From a virus (taxonomy: Duplodnaviria > Caudoviricetes): a stretch of 64,000 bases of DNA. Of this stretch, positions 9,049 to 52,127 are shown in pieces; the stretch's first letter is position 1; every line of letters starts with the position of its first letter. The notes under the pieces were generated by a model. The model was not told where the DNA came from and did not search any database. It saw nothing but the letters and a program-made list of their open reading frames with translations. The DNA lies in IMG/VR virus record IMGVR_UViG_3300031992_004562, positions 32,001 through 96,000 of that record; one strand, given 5' to 3'. Position numbers and translations under genes: made by a program.

Positions 9049-9989
9049 CATTCTATATAAATTGGTCTTATTTTACCAGTTACTGCTGGAATTGATTCAT
9101 TATTCCAAACAATATATGAATTACATTTAACATTAAAAATAGAAGACATTTTTATTTTTGCTAAATATAAATATATTTTATCTTTAAGTTGATTGTTCTT
9201 AGGATTTTCTCTATAAAGTTCAGATGTCTAATATAAAGCAAGGTCTTCATATGGGAACCATATAAAATTAAGTGGGTCTTTTTTAGAAACTAATAAATAA
9301 CCAAGATCTGGCATATATTCATCAAGTTTAAGATGATATTGTTTTGTATCTGTGAATAATTCAAGAAATTGAAACATTGTTGGCGTTCTATAATGTTTAT
9401 CAACATTATATGCTGCATCATCTTCTAATTCTAGTTTAAAACTATTCTTAGATTTATCTTTAAACTATTTAATATAGGTGTTTTTGAGCTTTTCTGTTTT
9501 ATCCCCTCCAGCATCTGTTCTATTAGGCATAGTATCACCCCAAACATAATATGAACCATTTTCTGCATTAAATTGAATTCTATTAATAGTAAATACATAA
9601 TCCATCTTTTCAAGATTTTCAGTGCACCATAAAGTGCCAGATGGCAAATTAAGATCAACGTATTCTCTATAAAAAACATTTTTTAATTTTAGATAATCCA
9701 TTAATATATCAACTTCAACTTTAGATAATGGAAATCTTTCTAATAGGTTCTCTTTAAATAATTTTAGATTATCTTTATATATAATTAATGAATAATAAAA
9801 TTCTAATATAGCATCTTCGTGAAGAATTTTTGGAAAAATAATATGTTTGCAGAATTGAAGTTTTTCTTCTTCTCCTGTATCAATTATATCTTGTTTTTGA
9901 TTATCCTATTCATCATTAAAATCAAAATCATCTAATGCTAAACTAACACCTTTTCCTATTGAATCTATTATGTTTTTTGTTGATTTCAT
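9048..9989 (-). CDS. tag-A leader plus DUF1566/Fib_succ-like C-type-lectin-fold protein (recoded)
   Basis: MKSTKNIIDSIGKGVSLALDDFD leader; YVDLNLPSGTLWC, YYVWGD, EDDAAY, RTPT, KIRPI motifs; continuous through TAGs. Confidence 0.75.
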
Positions 9990-16289: not shown

Positions 16290-17402
16290 ATGAAATGCTA
16301 TGATTTTTTAATAGTTGGTGCTGGTTTATTTGGTGCAACATTTGCATATAAAGCTAAACAAGCTGGAAAGAAATGTTTAGTTATTGATAAGCGTAAACAT
16401 CTTGGTGGAAATACTTATTGTGAAAATATTTACGGAATTAATGTTCATAAATATGGTGCACATATATTTCATACATCAAATAAGGAAATTTGGGACTTTG
16501 TAAATTCACTAGTCCCATTTAACAATTATATTAATTCACCTCTAGCCAACTATAAAGGCGATATATATAATTTACCATTTAATATGAATACATTTCACCA
16601 GATGTGGAATATTAATACACCAAATGAGGCTGAGAATATAATTAATGAACAAAGAAAAAAATTAAATGGAAAAGAACCTGAAAATTTAGAAGAACAAGCT
16701 ATATCTTTAGTTGGTAGAGATATTTATGATATATTAATTAAAGGTTATACAGAAAAGCAATGGGGAAGAAAATGTTCTACACTTCCAGCATCTATAATTA
16801 AACGGCTTCCATTAAGATTCACATATAATAATAATTATTTTAATGATACATATCAAGGAATTCCAATTGGTGGATATAATAAGTTAATTGAAAAATTATT
16901 GGAAGGTGTAGATGTTAAATTAGATTGTAATTTCTTTGATCATAAAACTGGTGCACTTGCAGATAAAATAATTTATACTGGTCCAATAGATGAATTTTAT
17001 GATTATCAATTTGGACATCTTGAATATAGAACAGTAACATTTACTCATGAAGTTATTTTAGACTATAATTATCAAGGAAATGCTGTTATTAATTATACAG
17101 ATAAAAAGACTCCATATACAAGAATAATAGAACATAAGCATTTTGAAACATTTGGAGGCAGTGTTTATGATAATCCAGTAACTGTTATTTCAAAAGAATA
17201 TAGTTTGGAATGGAAACCTGGTATGGAACCATATTATCCAATTAATGACAATAAGAATAATCGAAAATATAATTTATATAAAGAACTTGCTGATAACGAA
17301 CCAGATGTGTTCTTTGGTGGAAGATTGGCAGAATACAAATATTATGATATGGCACCAACTATAGAAAGTGCAATAAAATTGGCAGAAAAAATAATTAAAT
17401 AA
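16290..17402 (+). CDS. glf: UDP-galactopyranose mutase
   Basis: IVGAGLFG, HKYGAHIFHT, GYTEKQWG, YTRIIEHKHF, EPYYP, GRLAEYKYYDM. Confidence 0.95.
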   Translation: MKCYDFLIVGAGLFGATFAYKAKQAGKKCLVIDKRKHLGGNTYCENIYGINVHKYGAHIFHTSNKEIWDFVNSLVPFNNYINSPLANYKGDIYNLPFNMNTFHQMWNINTPNEAENIINEQRKKLNGKEPENLEEQAISLVGRDIYDILIKGYTEKQWGRKCSTLPASIIKRLPLRFTYNNNYFNDTYQGIPIGGYNKLIEKLLEGVDVKLDCNFFDHKTGALADKIIYTGPIDEFYDYQFGHLEYRTVTFTHEVILDYNYQGNAVINYTDKKTPYTRIIEHKHFETFGGSVYDNPVTVISKEYSLEWKPGMEPYYPINDNKNNRKYNLYKELADNEPDVFFGGRLAEYKYYDMAPTIESAIKLAEKIIK

Positions 17403-17407
17403 AATAT

Positions 17408-18163
17408 ATGGAACAAAAATTTTTATATTCAATATTAACAGTTAACACAAATCATTATGAAAAAATACATGAGGTTCAAAATCCAAATCCTAATGTAGAG
17501 TATGTATGTGTAACAGATGATGAAACATTAACATCTAAAACATGGAAACTTATTTATAAAAAAGATATTTGGTTTCTTGATGTAAAGCATAATGTATTTG
17601 ATTATGTTTCTACAGATGTTTGCTTATGGCTTGATGGAAGTTATCAAATAACTGATGACCCAACAGAAGAATTTGTTATGCCATTTATAAAATCAGATAA
17701 AGAAATGATGATATCATTGCATAATTGGCGAACAAATGTCTTTGATGAATTATGCCAATGGTGGATTGGCAGAAATGTTCAAACAAAAAATGTAAAAGCC
17801 CTATGTTCTATATTATGTAAAAATGATATGTCAGGAAAGGATATTTTATTCCAAACATCATGTTATTTAGTAAAGAAAACTGAAAGTGTTATAAAATTAT
17901 ATAATACTATTAGAGAAGTAGAAAAGGTATGTAGTATTGATGGACCATATAGAGATGACCAAGTTATTACATCAATGTGTATTGCAAAATTATTCCCAAA
18001 TTGGAATAAATTAGTATTAATGGATTTTGGACATATTTCAAATAACAAATATTTCCATATGTGTGCGCATGGTAGTGACCAAGCATATCGTTTTACAGCA
18101 CTTAAAAACAGATGTTGGGATAAAGAACAACACTTATATAAAATTGGGCAGCCTTTTGATTAA
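17408..18163 (+). CDS. putative glycosyltransferase (DUF616-like GT-A fold)
   Basis: YVCVTDD, CLWLDGS, H..R..VFDE, RDDQV; directly downstream of glf. Confidence 0.65.
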   Translation: MEQKFLYSILTVNTNHYEKIHEVQNPNPNVEYVCVTDDETLTSKTWKLIYKKDIWFLDVKHNVFDYVSTDVCLWLDGSYQITDDPTEEFVMPFIKSDKEMMISLHNWRTNVFDELCQWWIGRNVQTKNVKALCSILCKNDMSGKDILFQTSCYLVKKTESVIKLYNTIREVEKVCSIDGPYRDDQVITSMCIAKLFPNWNKLVLMDFGHISNNKYFHMCAHGSDQAYRFTALKNRCWDKEQHLYKIGQPFD

Positions 18164-21290: not shown

Positions 21291-21860
21291 ATGAATAATA
21301 AACATTTATACAATAAAATTATAAATGCTATAAATGAAAGTGTCTAGAATGCATTAAATGAATATAACAAATATGAAAATTCTGATCATCATCGTGGTGG
21401 CAATATTCATGATTTAAAATTTCTTGCATAGGTACTAACTAATAAATATGGTTATAAAGCATATCCTGTATCATCTACACTTGGAAAACCATATTAGTTA
21501 ATTTTAAGAAGAGAAAGTGGAGTAAGAAAAAATGTTTATGTTCAACAACGAAAAAAGGGAACAACTTCAGGAAATATTGCATTAAGACTTAAAAAATATG
21601 GTGAAACATTATCATTATTAGACAATCCAGAAATTAATGAAATTTGTTTGATATGCCCGCCTGTAATGAATTATGATCCAAGAGGTGAAGTAGTTGATAA
21701 TACTAAAGCTTGTTTTTTTGAAAAAGATTATTTAAAAGATAAAGTTGAACATGGGGAAATTCCAATAACAAAAACACGAGATGGTGAAATGTTAATGCTT
21801 TCAGAAAAATGGATAAAAGAAAATGCAAAACAAATTATTTCATATAAATATATACGATAA
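21291..21860 (+). CDS. tag-B-like leader protein (recoded), possible nuclease-like fold
   Basis: MNNKHLYNKIINAINESV(Q)NALNE; three TAGs join it to ORF 21648..21860. Confidence 0.7.
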
Positions 21861-21882
21861 AGAGAGTTTAAAAACTCTCTTT
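21859..21882. terminator. bidirectional terminator hairpin
   Basis: aaagagagtttaaaaactctcttt between convergent genes. Confidence 0.75.
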
Positions 21883-21888
21883 TTATTT

Positions 21889-22740
21889 TTATAAATTTAT
21901 TACTGGACGAACGCTAAAACCAATATAACGATTGTTAGTGAATACACGGATATTGTCTGAATAGAAATGCAAGTACCAAGCGTAATTGGGAACGCCTAAA
22001 TAAAGACTTGAAGACCACAAGTTACAGCCAGAACCAATGCCGTAGATATCAGAATCATTATGATAACCAGCTGCAGGAATAAACAATTGATTTCCATTCT
22101 TTCCTTTAAATATCCTGCCATTTAATCCTTGAATTCCTCCATCAACTTTTAGATTATGCTTTATTTTATTAGGATTATAATTATTAACCCAATAACTATG
22201 AGTATAATTTATTAATTCTATATACTGTTCTTCAGTTGGAATATGAAATTTAAAATTATGTAATTTTTTATTCTAGTAAGCAGCATCATCTTCAGGCAGT
22301 AATTCTGTTAAATTATCAGTAAATCCCCAAGTTTTTGTTATTTGATTATATCCCTTTTGAGGATTATTACAATATTTTGTTAAACAATCTTTTTCAGATA
22401 AATCTGTATAGTGTTCTGCATATTTATATGTAGACCAACTGAATTCTGGTTTATTTGGTTTCAATTCGCCCCATGCATAATATCCACCATACCAATCTTC
22501 GGCTTTAGACAACTAATTCTAATTAACTCCTAAATTATATTTGCACCATAAAGTGCCTGAAGGCAAACCTAAATCAACAACTTCTTTTATTAAATCATAT
22601 TTCTATTTAATAACATCTTCTGCATTAATGACATCATTATGTTGAGATAATGAACTAATTGGTTCATTATCTTCAAAATCATCAAGTGCAAGTTTAATGC
22701 CTCTATTTACAGCTTCTAATATCTGTTTATAATTTTTCAT
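21889..22740 (-). CDS. tag-A leader plus DUF1566/Fib_succ-like CLec-fold protein; candidate DGR target (recoded, 4 TAG)
   Basis: MKNYKQILEAVNRGIKLALDDFED; VDLGLPSGTLWC, YYAWGE, EDDAAY, FIPAAG, LWSSS, GFSVRPV. Confidence 0.85.
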
Positions 22741-22808: not shown

Positions 22809-23768
22809 ATGAAAATATTACAACCAAGTTTTTAGATATTAGAACAAGAACCAGGATTAAAAGGTATTTATAAAGCAATTGAATATCCTGGACGTATTTG
22901 CTATAATTCAACAGATAAAATAACAGAAGATTCTGCCGAAGAATTTGTTCATAATAGGTTAGAAGCATCTAATCATGGTGCACCTATGGAACATGGCGCA
23001 GTTTATTTGTATATTACTAGAAATGTTGATTATGATGAATGGCTTTCCCCTAGTCCAGAATATGGCAAGTATGATGAACTTTTAGAATTTTATAGTGATA
23101 ACAAATATTCAAAAGTTGAAGAACGAGTATGTGTAGATTTAAAAGATCATTTATATATTTCGACTAATTATAGAGTTTTATTTGAGAATAATAGATTAGA
23201 TGACTTAAAATATTTATGTGAACCAACAGAATATCACCATAAAAGAGTAACTGTTAAATTCACTTGCAATATTGGAGTATCTCGTGAATTTAATAGACAT
23301 CGTGCGGATTCTATTAATGAGGAGTCAACAAGATATTGTAATTATTCAAAAGATAAGTATGGTAATGAGATTTCTATAATTCAAAATAACAATAAACTGA
23401 GCAGATTTGATTTTAGTGCAGGAGTTAGAGAGTTTATTGATTATTGCAAGATAATTGTAGATAATGATAAAGAATATAATAACCCAAGAAATGGTTTTGG
23501 AGAAATAGATTATTGGCTATTTTCTAATGAAGCAGCTGAATGGTCATATATTGGTTTGACACAATACTGTGGCTGGAATGCACAAGATGCAAGAGATGTA
23601 TTACCATTGGATACCAAATCTATATTGGTTCATAGTGCATTTATAGATGATTGGAAGCATTTCTTCGATTTGAGAGCCATTGGAACTACTGGTGCACCTC
23701 ATCCTCAAGCAAAAGAATTAGCATCGCCATTAATGGAAGAATTTAAGAAAAGAAATTTAATTGATTAA
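22809..23768 (+). CDS. thyX: flavin-dependent thymidylate synthase ThyX; true start at 22809 with TAG at codon 9
   Basis: MKILQPSF(TAG)ILEQEPGLKGIYKAIEYPGRICYNS..H.APMEHG; REFNRHR.DSINEESTRY; ARDVLP; HFFDLR..PHPQ. Confidence 0.9.
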
Positions 23769-31060: not shown

Positions 31061-31999
31061 TTACTTAGAACCTTTTTCAATTTCTTCACGATTTGCATTG
31101 TACCATTCATTGAACTTGTAATATTCATCAATTCCAACTTGGTGAATTGCTGCATCAAGTTCTGCATAATCACAATGCTTAATCTTTACAATAATTCGTT
31201 TTCCACGAGGATCCTTAATAGGAACAATAGGACGTGCTACAATACCTTCCTCAAGATAATCGGGATTTGATGGGCAAGGAACACGGGTCTTAAAGCCCTT
31301 ACGAACCATTGCTTCTGCTTGGTCGATTGTCATTTGGCCAATATAAGGTGCCCAAGGCAATTCAAGCTTTACGCAGTAATCCATCATCATATCCTTTGGT
31401 ACATACCAGCCTTGTACACAGATATCAAATACAGCGAAACGGTTATTATCCTTGTCATAGTTGCCACCAGCCTGGATTTTCTTACCATAGAATTCACCGT
31501 AAATATATACTGGTGCCTCCTCATATTCAACTACGTACACGCCTTCATGCGTTGATTTATCAATTGGCTCATTTGGACGATAACCTTCAGCTACATCAAA
31601 TTCATACATAACCGGAAGATTCTTATCATTCATTTTTGGTACAAACTTAGCAGACGATGCAGGGAACAATTGTGCCAAAGTAGGCTTAATTCGTTCAATA
31701 ATTGCATCAATGAAAGCCTTTTGTCCAGTACCAATAATATTAGCATTATCAGTTTTACCAGAACAGAAACATTCACCAGTAGAAGGATAGTACACAATCT
31801 TAGTGTTAGTGCCATCAATCTTAGAGAAGCAATCATACATCAAATCCTTGATATATGCCATATGTTCATCAGAGTAATCACCCATGATGATTTTGTTTTG
31901 GAACACCTTCCATACTGGATTAGGAAGAGTTACTTTACCAAGGTTTTGATAACGCTTGTACAGCGTGTTAATTTTTGTGTAAGTTTGAGTTTTTGTCAT
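31061..31999 (-). CDS. ATP-dependent RNA ligase (Rnl2-like)
   Basis: KIDGTN, YGEFYG, FAVFDI, EEGIV, IVKIK nucleotidyltransferase motifs. Confidence 0.88.
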   Translation of the reverse strand: MTKTQTYTKINTLYKRYQNLGKVTLPNPVWKVFQNKIIMGDYSDEHMAYIKDLMYDCFSKIDGTNTKIVYYPSTGECFCSGKTDNANIIGTGQKAFIDAIIERIKPTLAQLFPASSAKFVPKMNDKNLPVMYEFDVAEGYRPNEPIDKSTHEGVYVVEYEEAPVYIYGEFYGKKIQAGGNYDKDNNRFAVFDICVQGWYVPKDMMMDYCVKLELPWAPYIGQMTIDQAEAMVRKGFKTRVPCPSNPDYLEEGIVARPIVPIKDPRGKRIIVKIKHCDYAELDAAIHQVGIDEYYKFNEWYNANREEIEKGSK

Positions 32000-34175: not shown

Positions 34176-34259
34176 AAAGAAGAGAATTGTTTCTCTTCTT
34201 TTTATTTAAATAATATTTTCATTCGTCTTATCATTACAGTATTAAATTTTTGATAATAA

Positions 34260-35351
34260 TCAAAAATCTTCAACATCATCAAGAGCCAATTGAATTCCTC
34301 TATTAACGGCTTCTAATAATGAATTTTCAAATTTTAAATTTAATATAAAGCTTTCAGATAATTTTTCTATATTTTCTTTTGAAAATGCTACAAATTTTTC
34401 AACAATTGAATTTACAAAATTTCTATCAAGCCATGGATATTTTTCATATAAATATGTTGTGTTTATCCAGGTAAATGGCTATTTTTCGCCTGATGGTGTT
34501 ATTGCAGTTCCTGTCATATATAATATATTTTCAAGTGCAAATTCATTTTCAGATTTAGATTTATCTAATAATTGTTGTAAATCTGCAAGAAATTCTTTTT
34601 CGTCATCTGCAATTTCCTATATTGCCTCTTTAACTCTATGAACAGAATATTCTGTTCTTAAAAATCTTAATACATAATTATTAAGTTTTTCAGCTGTACC
34701 ATCTTCATCTATAAAATACCATTCAGGCCTATCAGCTAATGATAAATCTGTAAATTGTCTAAATGCCATTTTATTTGGATCATTTGGATCTCTAAATAAA
34801 CCACTTTGACCAATAGATTGTGTATATTTTTTAGTATGTGTTCTATTTTCATCTTTTGTTCTAGATGCATTTAAACCTTGATATTCTGGTTTACGTCTCC
34901 AATCATTTTCTGGATAATCGGTTTCAGCTTTGCCAAAACCATGTCTTAGACGAATATTCTATTCTTCATCACCCCATTCATGATATTTTGATAGAAATCT
35001 GCCATTTTGCATCCAACGGATAACTGTACGGCTAATCTTAATAATATGTACATCACCTTCAATATCCATTGGTGCAGAATTTCTTTGTCCTGCCAACACC
35101 TATGAATATTTTTCAGAATCTTTAAAAGATTGTAAACGACTTTTAAATCTTGGAGAATTTTCTAATTCTTTTCCAGAAAGATATCCAGTTAGTTTTTTAT
35201 CATTTTCAATATTAACTTTCTTTCTTGAACGAGGCCCATATGATAATGCCCCATCATTTAAATAACCAATTGACACAAATAAATCATTTGGCAGTATGTT
35301 TTTTGTTAAAAATGGAATTATATCTTTACCAACTAATATACGTTCTTTCAT
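34260..35351 (-). CDS. 363-aa recoded protein carrying tag A at its extreme C-terminus
   Basis: Single frame through TAGs, ending NSLLEAVNRGIQLALDDVEDF-TGA. Confidence 0.75.
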
Positions 35352-35407: not shown

Positions 35408-36361
35408 ATGGAAATAATTAATAAGAAAATAATAGAATCTGTTAATAGAGGCATATAGTTGGCATTAGATGATTTTGAAGATATTGATAATATATCATCT
35501 AATAAAAATGACATAGTGTCTTCTAGTAACTTTGATGAATATGTCAAATTTAGAAACATTATTAAAAAGATTTTAAATCATGATAGAGATCTTCCAAGAA
35601 AATTAGATGAAATTCGTGTATATAAAGAAATGATTAAATTACATGATGATTATGGTTTTCTTTATAAAGTTAATACATTAGATGAATTAAAATCTATTAT
35701 TGAAAGATTTATAGATATTTGGCCAGTTGCCACAAATAATTTTAACTGGCTAGATGTTTCTTCGTTAACAAGTTTGCAATATGCATTTAGTTCAGCATCT
35801 ATAAGAGATAAAATTGGCAAAGTAATTATAGATGAATGGAATGTTTCTAATGTAAAAGATATTCAATTTATGGCATGGCAATGCGCATATTTTGAAGCAG
35901 ATTTATCTAAATGGAATGTATCTAATCTTGAATATGCAGGCGGTGCATTTTTAGGATGTAAAAAATTTAATTCAGACTTATCTAATTGGAATGTTTCAAA
36001 TTTATATGATGCATCTTCAATGTTTTTATATTGTGATAATTTTAATTCTGATTTATCTAGATGGAATGTTTCTAATTTAGTAGATGCATCTTAGATGTTT
36101 AAAGAATGCAAAACATTTAATTCAGATTTATCTAATTGGGATGTTAGTAATGTGCAAAATGCTAATATGATGTTTTATGATTGTGAAGCTTTTAATTAGG
36201 ATTTGTCTAAATGGAATTTAGCAAAATGCAATAATGGAAATAGAGATTAGTGGTTTAGATAGGTATTTGCATATACACCAATGGAACATGAATATGATTT
36301 ATATCCAGATAAATTATTAACTGATAATATGAGAATATAGGCTACAATGAAAAAGAAATGA
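35408..36361 (+). CDS. tag-A leader plus BspA/DUF285-type leucine-rich repeat protein (recoded, 6 TAG)
   Basis: IIESVNRGI(TAG)LALDDFED; repeats FNSDLSNWNVSNL..MF and FN(TAG)DLSKWN. Confidence 0.85.
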
Positions 36362-37098
36362 AAAAATTTAATAAACATATATTAGAAGCAGTAAATAGAG
36401 GTATCTAGTTAGCTTTAGATGATTTTGAAGATATAGAAGATAATAATACTTTATCTTCAAAAAATGATGTTATAGATAGTGAAGATGTTATTAAAAACAA
36501 AATTGATTTATAGAATTTTGTTGATCTTGGTCTACCATCTAAAACATTGTGGTATAAAAGAACATTAGGTGAAACTGATAATACTTTTGGTGAATGGTAC
36601 GCATGGGGAGAAATAAAACCTAAAAATGTATATGCTTGGCATAATTACAAATATGCAAAAAGAAATGAAGAGAATTTAACTAAATATTGCAATGATAAAG
36701 TTGATGGATATAAAGGATTTACAGATAATAAAGAAACTTTAGATTTATGCGATGATATTGCATATTTAACAAATAAACATTTTAGAATTCCTTCAAGTAA
36801 TGATTTTGAAGAATTATTAGATAATTGTAACTATGAATGGATAACTGGTGATACAATTGGAATCATATTTAGGTCAAGAAAGAATGGAAATGAATTATTT
36901 TTTCCTGCATCTGGATTTATTAACGATTATGGATAGGTTGCAGAACGTGGAAAAACTGGATTATTTTGGGCAAATAATATTTCCAGTGACGCATTGCCAG
37001 AATAGGCGTATTGCTTAAGTATTGAACAGGCAAGTAATGCAGTTATAATGGCAGATAGATGTTTAGGCTTATAGATTAAACCAATATGGGTATGGTAA
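36358..37098 (+). CDS. tag-A leader plus DUF1566/Fib_succ-like CLec protein (recoded)
   Basis: ILEAVNRGI(TAG)LALDDFED; VDLGLPSKTLW, YAWGE, FFPASG. Confidence 0.82.
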
Positions 37099-37883
37099 AG
37101 AATAATAAAATATTAGAAGCCATTAATAGAGGTATATAGTTGGCACTTGATGATTTTGAAGATATAGAGAATAATAATTCTGTATCTCAATTAAGTGATG
37201 TCATAAATAGTGATGATGTAATTAAAAATAAGATAGAATTTAATAAATTCTTTGTTGATATGGGATTTCCATCTGGAACTATATGGGCTAAATACAATTT
37301 AGGTGTTAATCCATATAGAGGACTATTTATACCTCAATCTTATTATGGTAATTATTATGCATGGGGCGAAACTAAACCAAAAAATAATTATGATTGGAGA
37401 AATTATAAATTCATTTCTAGTATAAGTCCTCTTAAATTTAAAAAATATAATGGTAACAGAAAAGATAGAGAAACTCTTGATTTGCGTGATGATGCGGCAT
37501 TTGTTAATAACCCATATTCAAATATCAATGTTAGAGTGTGCCTTCCAACACCTGAACAAATTATTGAATTACAAATACATACAGATAGAGAACTTGTACA
37601 TAATTACAAAGGTATTGCAGGATTAAATGTTGTAATTTTAACATCTAGATGCAATGGTAAAAAATTGATGTTTCCTCTTGGAGGATTTAAAGATGAAGAA
37701 CAAACGAAATATGTTGGTGAAACTGGTTTTATAATGTCAAAATATATGGATAAACAATATAATCATAGGGCATATGGAATTAGTTTTTAGATTAAATACA
37801 CTGGAGGAAAACATTTGGATTTTAAATTTGATTATATTGGGAAAAAGACTGGTGTAAATGTAAGACCAGTAATAATGAAATAA
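37092..37883 (+). CDS. tag-A leader plus DUF1566/Fib_succ-like CLec protein (recoded)
   Basis: ILEAINRGI(TAG)LALDDFED; VDMGFPSGTIWAKYNLG, YYAWGE, GVNVRPV. Confidence 0.85.
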
Positions 37884-41555: not shown

Positions 41556-41628
41556 TGCCCCATTGCATAATGGCAGTGCGCATGACTCTAAATCATGGTC
41601 AGTCTCGGTTCGATTCCGAGTGGGGCTG
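41556..41628 (+). tRNA. amber suppressor tRNA (anticodon CTA), Gln-like
   Basis: Acceptor GCCCCA/TGGGGC, D arm GCAT-AATGGCA-GTGC, anticodon arm CATGA-CTCTAAA-TCATG (CTA at 41588-41590), T arm CTCGG-TTCGATT-CCGAG; unpaired U1/U72, G73; CCA not encoded. Confidence 0.93.
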
Positions 41629-41632
41629 CAAA

Positions 41633-45814: not shown

Positions 45815-46606
45815 TTATTTCATTAAAACTGGTCTTACAAAAACACCATGTTCTCTTGCTATTGTATCAATACGTATTCTATTATCTTTTTCAATTTGCA
45901 TACAATAATATAACCAATCAAACGCTTCAGGATATATATAACTTGTCATATAATATCCATAATTTAAATTTGTTAAGTTTACATTAATTGAATTTTCATT
46001 CTAAAGATACCCATGTATTGGAAATATTATTTCATTTCCATTTATTTTAGAGGTTAATTTACAAACATATAAATTTAAAACACCATTGTATGTATAATGA
46101 AAAGATTTTATTGTATTGGCTAATAACTCTTCATATTGATCTATAGTTGGTACACAAATATTTACATGATATTTTTTATATAAATTGGAATTATATGCTG
46201 GGTCATCGCATAATTCTAATTTCATTAATTTATCATCTTTATTATATTTAATATAATGATCTATAATATTTCTATTATTAATAGTTCGTTTTTCTAAAAA
46301 TTTATACTATGTTGTTATTTTAGGTTTTAATTCACCAAATGCATAATAATCTCCATACCAATCAGCAGCTATTTCTAAATTATTAGGATTAACACCAAGA
46401 TTATATTTTGACCACAACGTTTTAGATGGAAGACCTAAATCGACAAAATTTTTCATTAACTCTATTTTATCATTGATGACATCATTTACATCTATAACAT
46501 CATTACTCTAAGATATAGAATTATTATCTTCCATATCTTGATAATCATCAAGTGCCAACTAAATACCTCTATTGACTGCCTCTAATATTTGTTTGTAATT
46601 TTGCAT
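45815..46606 (-). CDS. tag-A leader plus DUF1566/Fib_succ-like CLec protein (recoded)
   Basis: MQNYKQILEAVNRGI(TAG)LALDDYQD; VDLGLPSKTLWSKYNLG, YYAFGE, GVFVRPV. Confidence 0.85.
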
Positions 46607-50409: not shown

Positions 50410-51408
50410 ATGAAAAGATTTAATAAGCAAATATTAGAAGCAATCAATAGGGGTGTTTAGTTGGCACTTGATGATTTTGATTATAATGAAGATATAACAA
50501 AATCTAAAACTGATATAATTAATACTGAAGAATATGCATTTAGTATTATAAACACATTATATAAAAAACTAACATCTGAAATATTAACTGTTTAGGAATT
50601 AGACCGTTTGGTACAATATTATCAAATAACAAAGCAAAAATATAAAGTTTATTCTAGACAAGAGCTAAAAAGAATTATTGATTATGTAATTGGTGTTTAT
50701 CAATCTGGTGATTTTGTTAAAGGACTTAATCCTGATATAAAAACATTAAATTGGATAGATGTTTCTGAAGTAAAATATATGGATGAACTATTTAAAGGAT
50801 TATAGTTTACATCAGATATTTCTGAATGGGATGTTTCTAATGTTTTAACAATGTCAAATATGTTTGAAAACGCTACATTCACTTCAGACATTTCAAAATG
50901 GAATGTTTCTAAAGTTACAACAATGTATGGAATGTTTTCAGCATGTAATTTTGAAAGTGAATTATCTGATTGGGATGTTTCCCATGTAACTGATATGGGA
51001 CATATGTTTTTCATTTCACCATTTAATGGAGATATTTCAAAATGGAATGTTAAAAATGTAACTAATATGCCATATATGTTTTATGCAGCTGTATATTTTA
51101 ATCAACCAATTGGAAAATGGAATATGTCCAAAGTTAATAATATTGATGGTATGTTTAATATGGCTAGTAGTTTTAATTAGGATATTTCTAAATGGAATAT
51201 TTCTAATGTTAAATCTTCTGAGCTTGCGTTTAGCAAATCTGGATTTGATTAGGATTTATCTAAATGGGATGGCGGAAATTTATCAATGACTACATTTAAA
51301 GGCAGTAAGATTTCTTCAAATCATTTACCAAAGTTTTGGCAAGAAAATGAAATGAATTTAGATGGCAAAAGAATATTAAATACATATTTACCAAAAGATT
51401 GGAATTAA
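50410..51408 (+). CDS. tag-A leader plus BspA/DUF285-type LRR protein (recoded)
   Basis: ILEAINRGV(TAG)LALDDFD; LNWIDVSEV, FNGDISKWNV, FNQPIGKWN, FN(TAG)DISKWN. Confidence 0.85.
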
Positions 51409-52127
51409 TGAAAAATTATAATAAAATATTAGAAGCCGTTCATCGTGGTATTTAGTTAGCACTCGATGATTTTGAAGATATAGAAGATAATAATTCTATA
51501 TTTTAGAGTAATGATGTCATTGATACAGATGATTATATAGATGATAGAGTTACATATAATAAATTATTAGAAAAGTTTTTTGATTAGATGAGTGATAGCT
51601 TAGTTATAAAAGTATCTAAAGATGATTTAAAAAAACTTGCAAATTTATCCAAAAATCTTGGTATGAAATTTAAAGTTGAAGATAATAGATTTTTACAAGA
51701 TATAATTAAAACTGTTTGTAGAATAGATAAGTCTGCAAATTTAAATTGGATTGACACATCAGAAGTAACCAATTTTGAAAATCTATTTAATATGACACTA
51801 TTTCATGGTGATATTTCAGAATGGGATACACATAATGTCAAAAACATGTATTCATGCTTTGCTTATTCTCAATTCAATGGCGATATATCAAGATGGGATG
51901 TATCAAATGTTGAAAATATGAATTGGATGTTTTAGGGTTCTTGGTTTAACAAACCAATTGAAAATTGGAATGTAGCTAAAGTAAAAAGTATGAATGGAAT
52001 GTTTAGTGAATCGCATTTTAATTAGAATATATCTAAATGGAATGTTGCAAATTGTAAAGGTTATATAAAATTTAATAATAAAAGCACATTAAAAAAATCT
52101 AATATACCACCAAAATTTAGAAAATGA
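51408..52127 (+). CDS. tag-A leader plus BspA/DUF285-type LRR protein (recoded)
   Basis: ILEAVHRGI(TAG)LALDDFED; ANLNWIDTSEV, FNGDISRWDVSNV. Confidence 0.85.

Follow-up and report, generated by a model that had tools for sequence, protein, structure and literature searches.

A probable orphan or remote variable region of the diversity-generating retroelement type in a tagged lectin-fold protein family of Lak-like megaphages

A 64,000-nt stretch of viral DNA (hereafter the window; positions 32001-96000 of the 111,625-nt IMG/VR record IMGVR_UViG_3300031992_004562, CheckV completeness 22%) encodes at 21889-22740, on the minus strand, a small protein with a C-type lectin (CLec) fold whose last ~55 codons have the architecture of a variable region (VR) of a diversity-generating retroelement (DGR). 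We consider it reasonably probable that this tail is a DGR-type VR on a lectin-fold protein of the DUF1566/Fib_succ_major (CLec2) kind, which is by now an orphan or fossil, or at best is served by a very remote element that rarely rewrites it. That the tail was written by adenine mutagenesis of the DGR type is likely when all readings that involve such mutagenesis are taken together. A preliminary description of the window had taken the gene for the target of a remote DGR. Its account of a VR-type tail on a CLec domain held, whereas an active remote element was not borne out, as no reverse transcriptase (RT) or template repeat (TR) was found in 1.36 Mb and the tails proved stable. The main features, in window coordinates, are as follows.

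21889-22740 (-): target gene, 283 amino acids (P0001), with four in-frame TAG codons read as glutamine, comprising an N-terminal tag, a CLec-fold domain and the variable tail; the frame is open only with TAG read as glutamine
21904-22074 (-): VR-like segment of ~57 codons, A-poor and rich in NNY codons (Y, pyrimidine), running from just after the FIPAAG motif to a conserved Arg-Pro and defined by codon counts and subfamily comparison
21892-21903 (-): conserved A-rich 3' flank with the codons for V-I-N-L, which closes the A-poor segment abruptly ahead of the stop codon TAA at 21889-21891

Codon composition of the tail

The 55-codon segment at 21904-22068 (-) has a pyrimidine at the third position of 46 codons (C in 15 and T in 31) and encodes no lysine, glutamate, glutamine or methionine, which reproduces the preliminary counts exactly. 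The base composition of this segment is T66 A36 C32 G31, corresponding to a GC content of 0.38 as compared to ~0.27 for the record. Third codon positions genome-wide are A 0.40, C 0.056, G 0.087 and T 0.46, and TAC accounts for 8% of tyrosine codons. When 5,620 sliding 55-codon segments from 101 non-overlapping open reading frames (ORFs) of the whole record were used as a null set, the target was found to hold the maximum of C-ending codons (15; mean 3.06, sd 1.98), the maximum of pyrimidine-ending codons (46; mean 28.7, sd 4.0) and the minimum of adenines (36; mean 64.7, sd 7.6).

The tail also differs from those of the four paralogues in the record, as had been described. Its three arginine codons are all CGT, where the paralogues have AGA at the same conserved positions, and its last 60 codons contain 15 C-ending codons, 48 pyrimidine-ending codons and 42 adenines, as opposed to 1-5, 26-29 and 57-75, respectively, in the paralogues. 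The suggestion that these paralogues are frozen former targets found no support, since all four have ordinary tails that retain no residue of the signature. They are listed below with counts for their last 60 codons.

36358-37098 (+): tagged CLec paralogue, ordinary tail (5 C-ending codons, 26 pyrimidine-ending codons, 60 adenines)
37086-37883 (+): paralogue, ordinary tail (1, 28 and 75)
45815-46606 (-): paralogue, ordinary tail (1, 29 and 74)
16994-17761 of the record, outside the window: fourth paralogue, ordinary tail

The comparison was extended to all family genes of the target record, of several ENA loci and of nine IMG/VR records from relatives, and codon statistics were computed over 29 distinct members of the target's subfamily. 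All 29 carry the signature, as do nine or ten members from JGI metagenomes. In an alignment of the best 20 sequences the body is conserved, while the last ~55 residues consist of a fixed scaffold (FIPAAG..GS.C.LWSSSL.L..P..A..L.F.S..I......R..G...RPVINL) interspersed with columns that hold up to nine or more different residues. The signature is bimodal within the wider family. Nearly all members scoring above ~390 bits against the family profile have 8-22 C-ending codons out of 58, 40-50 pyrimidine-ending codons and 30-53 adenines in the tail, with ~3 C-ending codons and ~71 adenines in their bodies. Most other paralogues have 0-7 C-ending codons, 22-37 pyrimidine-ending codons and 54-79 adenines, and a few lower-scoring members bear the signature or are intermediate.

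Synonymous positions were shifted along with amino acid content. Arginine is encoded in the bodies of the 29 members by AGA 65 times, AGG 10 times and CGN 9 times (11% CGN), and in their tails by CGT 55 times, CGC 29 times, CGA 7 times, CGG once and AGA 9 times (91% CGN). Third positions of four-fold degenerate codons (A/C/G/T) change from 0.41/0.06/0.03/0.49 in the body to 0.17/0.15/0.03/0.64 in the tail, and the share of C among two-fold, pyrimidine-ending codons rises from 0.10 to 0.38. The shifts in arginine CGN use, four-fold A and C share are synonymous and therefore cannot be produced by selection at the protein level; as G at third positions is unmoved, a general rise in GC cannot explain them either. 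At the protein level, lysine, glutamate, glutamine, methionine and tryptophan make up 30% of residues in variable columns of the body and 6.5% in those of the tail.

The distribution of adenine within codons is that expected of adenine-specific mutagenesis, with NNY codons at variable positions and scaffold codons that are nearly A-free. Adenine occupies the second position in 2% of conserved tail codons as compared to 46% of conserved body codons. In the variable tail codons it is the commonest base at positions 1 and 2 (0.29 and 0.46), while position 3 is a pyrimidine in 83%. In codon pairs that encode different amino acids, pyrimidines fill both third positions in 72-75% of cases in the tail and in 26-32% in the body. 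Four-fold sites with a T consensus differ less between sequences in the tail (0.23) than in the body (0.485; p ~0.01, n=5), and those with an A consensus remain variable in the tail, where there are just two such sites. Per-base pairwise divergence does not help to tell the hypotheses apart, as a template adenine that was mutated shows up in other copies as C, G or T. The A-poor segment begins directly after GCA GCT GG and ends with CGT CC, and its sharp borders and length of ~170 nt are typical of a VR. Adenines of the 3' flank (GTA ATA AAT TTA) are kept in 22-28 of the 29 sequences, unlike those within the segment. No GC-rich initiation of mutagenic homology (IMH) element was found at the 3' end; the segment is closed by the conserved A-rich flank, within the codons for RPVINL.

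Genuine VRs behave in the same way. In the VRs of two AT-rich crAss-like phages that were measured, C at third positions amounts to 0.16-0.19 as compared to 0.03-0.08 in the gene body, adenine to 0.04-0.16 as compared to 0.35-0.36, and lysine, glutamate, glutamine, methionine and tryptophan together to 0.03 as compared to 0.16-0.20, and arginine is encoded by CGN in place of AGA. These VRs shift as the target tail does and thus serve as a positive control for the signature. Together with the 29-member comparison, they strengthen the earlier claim that a VR codon architecture is found at the C-terminus of a CLec fold.

A tail of this kind might also have arisen with no retroelement ever involved, if the ligand face of the lectin had been under long diversifying selection with recombination among ~20 paralogues per genome, and a preference for Tyr, Ser, Gly, Asp, Asn, Cys and Phe had set the composition. 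Conserved core residues of any lectin fold lack adenine at position 2 for structural reasons, and FISUMP (Fib_succ_major) proteins that are not DGR targets are likewise aromatic-rich in their tails. The synonymous choices given above, with arginine CGN at 91% as opposed to 11%, four-fold A at 0.17 as opposed to 0.41, C share at 0.38 as opposed to 0.10 and G flat, are however left unexplained, as is the acceptance of K/E/Q/M/W in body columns but rarely in tail columns. In addition, the sister paralogues and a Prevotella homologue have the same fold without the signature. We regard this explanation as distinctly unlikely.

Recent import of the 3' end of the gene from a GC-richer donor was the fallback offered in the preliminary description; a FISUMP gene of the host, or one of its DGR targets, could for instance have been the donor. 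Such an import would account for the raised local GC content, and the homologue in a Prevotella metagenome-assembled genome (MAG) does contain FIPAAG...RPV. The shift is however specific to base and strand, with A lowered, third-position C raised and third-position G unchanged, and the scaffold codons follow the AT-rich usage of the phage itself. The host homologue has balanced third positions (A 0.25, C 0.32, G 0.22 and T 0.21) and a tail that is 35% identical and not A-poor, and a search of 401 Prevotella genomes returned chance matches of 20-43 nt only. As every orthologue in every relative has the signature, an import could not be recent. This alternative was accordingly rejected as scarcely tenable.

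Under the favoured reading, a TR with AAY codons at ligand-contacting positions and adenine-free codons at scaffold positions would have been reverse-transcribed with adenine-specific errors, and the mutated complementary DNA would have replaced the 3' end of the gene. The outcome would be NNY codons within a scaffold that shuns adenine even synonymously, as in arginine CGT rather than AGA. The process would have hit the whole subfamily of tagged CLec genes repeatedly, in Lak-like megaphages in which TAG is recoded.

Two further observations concern unusual codon use outside the family genes proper. The record's only other usage rich in C-ending codons is that of a TAG-free gene of the RNA ligase family at 31061-31999 (-) (PF09414, E 1e-12; GC 0.36), with 11-13 C-ending codons per 55 along its whole length. 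As the shift spans the whole gene, it suggests expression-linked bias or foreign origin and not a VR. On a JGI contig (OLRA01004816.1, GC 0.41) a frame of >860 codons has a related tail with 50 of 66 codons ending in a pyrimidine (L266:4044-4241), and its 10-kb contig contains no TR/VR pair and no RT; the frame may represent an unrelated target of the DGR type that belongs to a different organism.

Search for a cassette and present-day variability

Several results weigh against a DGR origin of the tail, or at least against an element that still acts on it, and are collected here. The search for an RT and a TR covered 1.36 Mb in total, made up of the target record, ~1.17 Mb of related megaphage contigs and 78 kb of JGI metagenome loci. 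No RT was found with PF00078 in the target record or in 17 related records, which include contigs of 380 kb (76% complete), 263 kb, 204 kb and 121 kb, nor with phrog_1423 in the five largest records, a profile that Brt matches at 1e-125. A DGR-RT profile derived from Brt and the RTs of six gut-phage DGRs, applied unfiltered to 1,278,987 nt, again gave no RT, the best match having an E value of 0.33 as compared to 1e-134 to 1e-156 for the controls. The 78 kb of JGI loci yielded neither RT nor TR. The initial remark that the window lacks both was thereby confirmed and applies equally to the rest of the record. No RT is present in the Pfam listings for three 20-kb loci around family genes on a 491-kb ENA scaffold.

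A non-coding copy of the tail differing only at adenines, which had been predicted, was not found either. An adenine-tolerant TR scan of the record and its relatives returned other family tails only, and the best non-self match in the target record had 7 non-A mismatches per 60 nt. The same scanner recovers the BPP-1 TR from VR1 with 0 non-A and 6-12 A mismatches per 60 nt, as well as the TR/VR pairs of two AT-rich crAss-like phages. TR patterns with fixed third codon positions had no match in IMG/VR. An AAY version of the C.LWSSSL.L..P scaffold had none in JGI metagenomes, with five AAY codons assumed, which is maybe too strict, and a pattern composed of A/M/R/W codes alone was uninformative as it matched poly-A runs at contig ends. 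None of the 401 Prevotella genomes contained a template-like match, the matches of 20-43 nt being at chance level. No cassette lies within 50 kb of any of eight targets in the relatives of 380 kb and 204 kb, and not one of >20 target loci is adjoined by one. In the literature searched, no paper connects Lak megaphages with a DGR or an RT, and neither is mentioned in the single Lak preprint consulted.

Present-day variation points the same way. In eight clusters formed at 90% identity from many samples, the tails are at least as stable as the bodies, with no higher density of variable columns and about two alleles per column; in cluster 2, variable columns number 9 of 60 in the tail and 48 of 212 in the body. 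Hypervariability is observed between lineages and paralogues only. Differences between close alleles include synonymous changes, a switch between arginine CGT and AGA and a block mosaic, which fits ordinary mutation and recombination. The exact sequences of the orthologues P0005 and P0044 recur on 3-4 large contigs. Within the segment itself there is one invariant adenine, in the AGT serine codon at column 278, and the third positions of variable tail codons are a mixture of C and T rather than fixed. The failure to find an RT or TR in anything searched, the short-range stability of the tails and the block mosaics, which are typical of recombination, would all suit the absence of any retroelement as well.

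The same results bear on the possibility that the gene is the target of an active, remote DGR, in which a live RT and TR located >50-100 kb away in the unsampled ~78% of a ~500-kb genome still rewrite the tail and its sister genes. All evidence from codon architecture applies equally to such an element. Some tails appear fresh, with up to 22 of 58 codons ending in C at an equilibrium of ~6%, though the paralogue bodies are saturated at synonymous sites. The target record is just 22% complete, contigs often break at family genes so that a cassette could be missed systematically, and a virion genome of 500 kb could carry remote targets where ordinary phages cannot, as reasoned from PMC5758913. 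Set against this are the lack of a cassette within 50 kb of the targets examined, the recurrence of tails that are identical across many samples while bodies vary (P0005 and P0044 being exact), and the lack of any RT or TR in ~2.3 genome-equivalents of relatives. The chance of missing an RT that is a core gene in all of these contigs is ~3-7% if the samples are independent, which is doubtful because contigs of the clade often break at family genes. An active remote DGR, in the form first proposed with live RT and TR, therefore found no support in the record, in the relatives, in the JGI loci or in the Prevotella genomes, and we consider it unlikely.

In the sampled lineages the tail is frozen, and the cassette is lost, very remote or foreign. 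As a cassette is near no target and was not found, and as the tails are stably inherited, an orphan or very remote copy is the most likely state of the VR. A more daring version, which we hold to be quite improbable, is that the dispersed family of tagged lectin-fold proteins is diversified in Lak-like megaphages by templated, adenine-specific mutagenesis without a canonical cassette of the phage's own, with RT and TR supplied in trans by a co-resident element or with an enzyme outside RVT_1 in place of the RT. In a milder form, a single cassette would serve targets hundreds of kb away, and would be the first DGR of a phage whose targets are truly remote.

Other low-adenine genes in the 380-kb relative (G003) were inspected and rejected as candidates, as they show composition shifts over whole genes and not VR-like segments. 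These include an A-poor gene cluster at 258-266 kb of that relative (L146:18418-19431, L147:3374-4807 and L147:4873-5916), in which two genes encode BspA-type leucine-rich repeats (PF13306, E 4e-41 and 6e-76) of host-derived appearance and the third has no Pfam match.

The tagged lectin-fold protein and its setting

The remaining features of the gene and its surroundings in the window are given below.

22597-22740 (-): N-terminal tag of ~48 residues, modelled as a helix (residues 2-20), a disordered acidic linker of low predicted local distance difference test (pLDDT) score and a helix (40-53) in an AlphaFold2 (AF2) model
21892-22581 (-): C-type-lectin/FGE-like fold domain, residues ~54-283, assigned by VIA-align
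22809-23768 (+): ThyX gene, neighbour of the target gene
21291-21860 (+): convergent gene without assigned function, the other neighbour
21859-21882 (strand not specified): hairpin with a 10-bp stem and a 4-nt loop, 6 nt past the TAA stop (-11.8 kcal/mol, z -4.2)
41556-41629 (+): suppressor tRNA with anticodon CUA, called by ARAGORN under the label tRNA-Pyl

The source is a Lak-like, TAG-recoded megaphage, the name being derived from genome features (TAG recoding, homologue contigs and a Prevotella link) and not from a taxonomic assignment. The record has a GC content of ~27%, and in-frame TAG codons occur in 33 of the 53 window ORFs of at least 150 amino acids (listed under TAG = Gln). As a suppressor tRNA with the matching CUA anticodon is encoded at 41556-41629, TAG is a sense codon, which fits its reading as glutamine. 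Homologues of the target gene lie on contigs of 491,481, 491,091 and 274,933 nt, the closest cellular homologue of the protein is from a Prevotella MAG and the predicted host is the genus Prevotella. Homologues number >7,600 and come almost entirely from ENA metagenomes, while the GenBank phage collection contained no relative of the protein.

Flanked by ThyX and the unassigned gene, the target gene is isolated on the minus strand and therefore lies outside a tail module; its surroundings consist of ThyX and replication-type genes. Together with TAG recoding and the shared N-terminal tag, this agrees with its description as a small, recoded, tagged protein that is not a tail fibre. The hairpin downstream was real as reported. 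It is the intrinsic terminator of the convergent gene pair, a terminator-like site with a T-rich tail being called on the plus strand at the same position, and it does not behave as a conserved element linked to the VR, as a downstream hairpin occurs in only 4 of the 29 subfamily genes and most of them directly abut the next gene.

Residues 1-48 of the tag match at least 6 other ORFs of the record, whose proteins are otherwise unrelated. Copies are located at 51408-51551 (+), 50422-50535 (+), 35423-35575 (+), 9507-9740 (-), 9870-9989 (-) and 34200-34325 (-). The tag has the motif ILEAxNRGIxLALDD in its first helix, followed by the acidic disordered linker and the second helix, and the C-terminal parts of its carriers differ. 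The 380-kb relative encodes ~20-28 tagged CLec paralogues. A role of the tag as a signal for docking, packaging or targeting is conceivable, and its repetition seems to break metagenome assemblies.

Matches of the domain to known families are weak, with residues 164-280 aligning to PF07603 (Lcl_C/DUF1566; E 0.0036, 18 bits, below the cut-off of 34.9) and to TIGR02145 (FISUMP; E 2e-4, 21.9 bits, below the cut-off of 41.65). The AF2 model, made from 124 sequences, has a pLDDT of 84.7 and exceeds 90 in the tail. By VIA-align it is closest to the C-terminal domain of Lcl (8q4e; Z 7.3, 119 aligned residues) and the C-domain of Bd2740 (7.1), followed by TvpA (6.5), an FGE paralogue (6.3), Mtd (6.2) and TaqVP (6.1), and the matches extend to residue 283. 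The 50 best-matching chains almost all have a CLec or FGE fold, and three solved DGR variable proteins are among them. As Z scores of 6-7.3 are middling, they define the fold class only. Foldseek gave no significant match, its top match also being 8q4e (E 0.76), and a family-profile sequence search of the PDB found nothing. On the basis of the model, the domain is predicted to share the fold of the solved Lcl C-terminal domain. In the AF2 model and the VIA-align superpositions the variable tail occupies the C-terminal, ligand-binding end of the CLec fold. The protein is probably a late-expressed, ligand-binding module, and the shared tag may dock it to, or deliver it to, a common partner.

A contig of a Prevotella MAG (CAKQDG010000014.1) encodes a 239-amino-acid secreted host protein of the FISUMP type (L220:5497-6216), in which a signal peptide replaces the tag and which has the motifs DLGL..W...NLG, YY.WGE, FIPAAG and R.VRPV in common with the phage family. 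This suggests descent of the phage family from surface proteins of the host, or at least a relationship with them. At two ENA loci, tandem arrays of family genes with A-poor tails are immediately preceded by genes for DUF7487 and for a TnsA-like endonuclease N-domain (PF08722) (L192:8285-10004 and L195:244-807), and a DUF7487 gene is also found near a family gene in a third locus (L132). On the 491-kb ENA scaffold, a family B DNA polymerase split by intein-like segments (PF14890) adjoins the orthologue P0005 (L131:1-4806).

Relation to known systems and significance

Among known DGR targets, the protein is most readily compared with proteins containing DUF1566, DUF823 or Fib_succ_major domains, which form target category 'd' with CLec2 VRs, account for 14% of DGRs and are short in about half of the cases (PMC5758913). 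Like the members of this category, whose type example is Legionella LdtA (Wu et al. 2018, PMC5758913), the target gives weak, mixed matches to DUF1566 and Fib_succ_major, is short with little beyond the domain, and carries its VR at the extreme C-terminus with NNY codons in an adenine-free scaffold. It differs in that no RT, TR or Avd was found, in that a phage tag shared with unrelated proteins replaces the lipoprotein signal, and in that the family comprises dozens of dispersed paralogues per TAG-recoded megaphage genome, with tails that are invariant within close lineages.

The target of Bordetella phage BPP-1 (Mtd) and the tail-collar fibre targets of crAss-like phages resemble the protein in their CLec fold (Z 6.2 for Mtd) and in a C-terminal VR of 95-170 nt, and the two crAss-like VRs that were measured have the compositional shifts of the target tail. 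They are however tail-fibre proteins whose genes belong to a structural module and have the TR and RT no more than a few hundred bases away, whereas the target gene stands by itself on the minus strand. TvpA of Treponema denticola, with a CLec/FGE fold (Z 6.5), belongs to a system with several dispersed targets, some of which are far from the RT, as in the phage family. That system is cellular, and has a single TR and an RT with VRs that differ from the TR at adenines only, whereas no TR matches any of ~40 phage-family tails. The FISUMP proteins of Bacteroidota (Fib_succ_major, TIGR02145), such as the Prevotella homologue described above, have domain and motifs in common with the phage family, but that homologue carries a signal peptide, and its tail is ordinary, contains lysine, glutamate and glutamine, shows no adenine depletion and is 35% identical.

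Surveys of DGRs start at the RT and look for a VR beside it, so that remote and orphan targets are missed (Roux et al. 2021, PMC8144416). Here a VR was recognised by its codon architecture alone, and the signature was then found across a large megaphage family. Arginine CGY as opposed to AGA, loss of four-fold third-position A without a gain in G, and NNY at variable columns make up a detector that requires no RT and is usable whichever reading holds. If complete genomes turn out to contain a cassette, Lak-like megaphages would be the first phages known in which a DGR acts on many targets distant from its RT and on proteins that do not belong to the tail module. If there is no cassette, the family would be a clear case of fossil VRs, one that shows the persistence of an adenine-avoiding scaffold and offers a means of dating the loss of the DGR.

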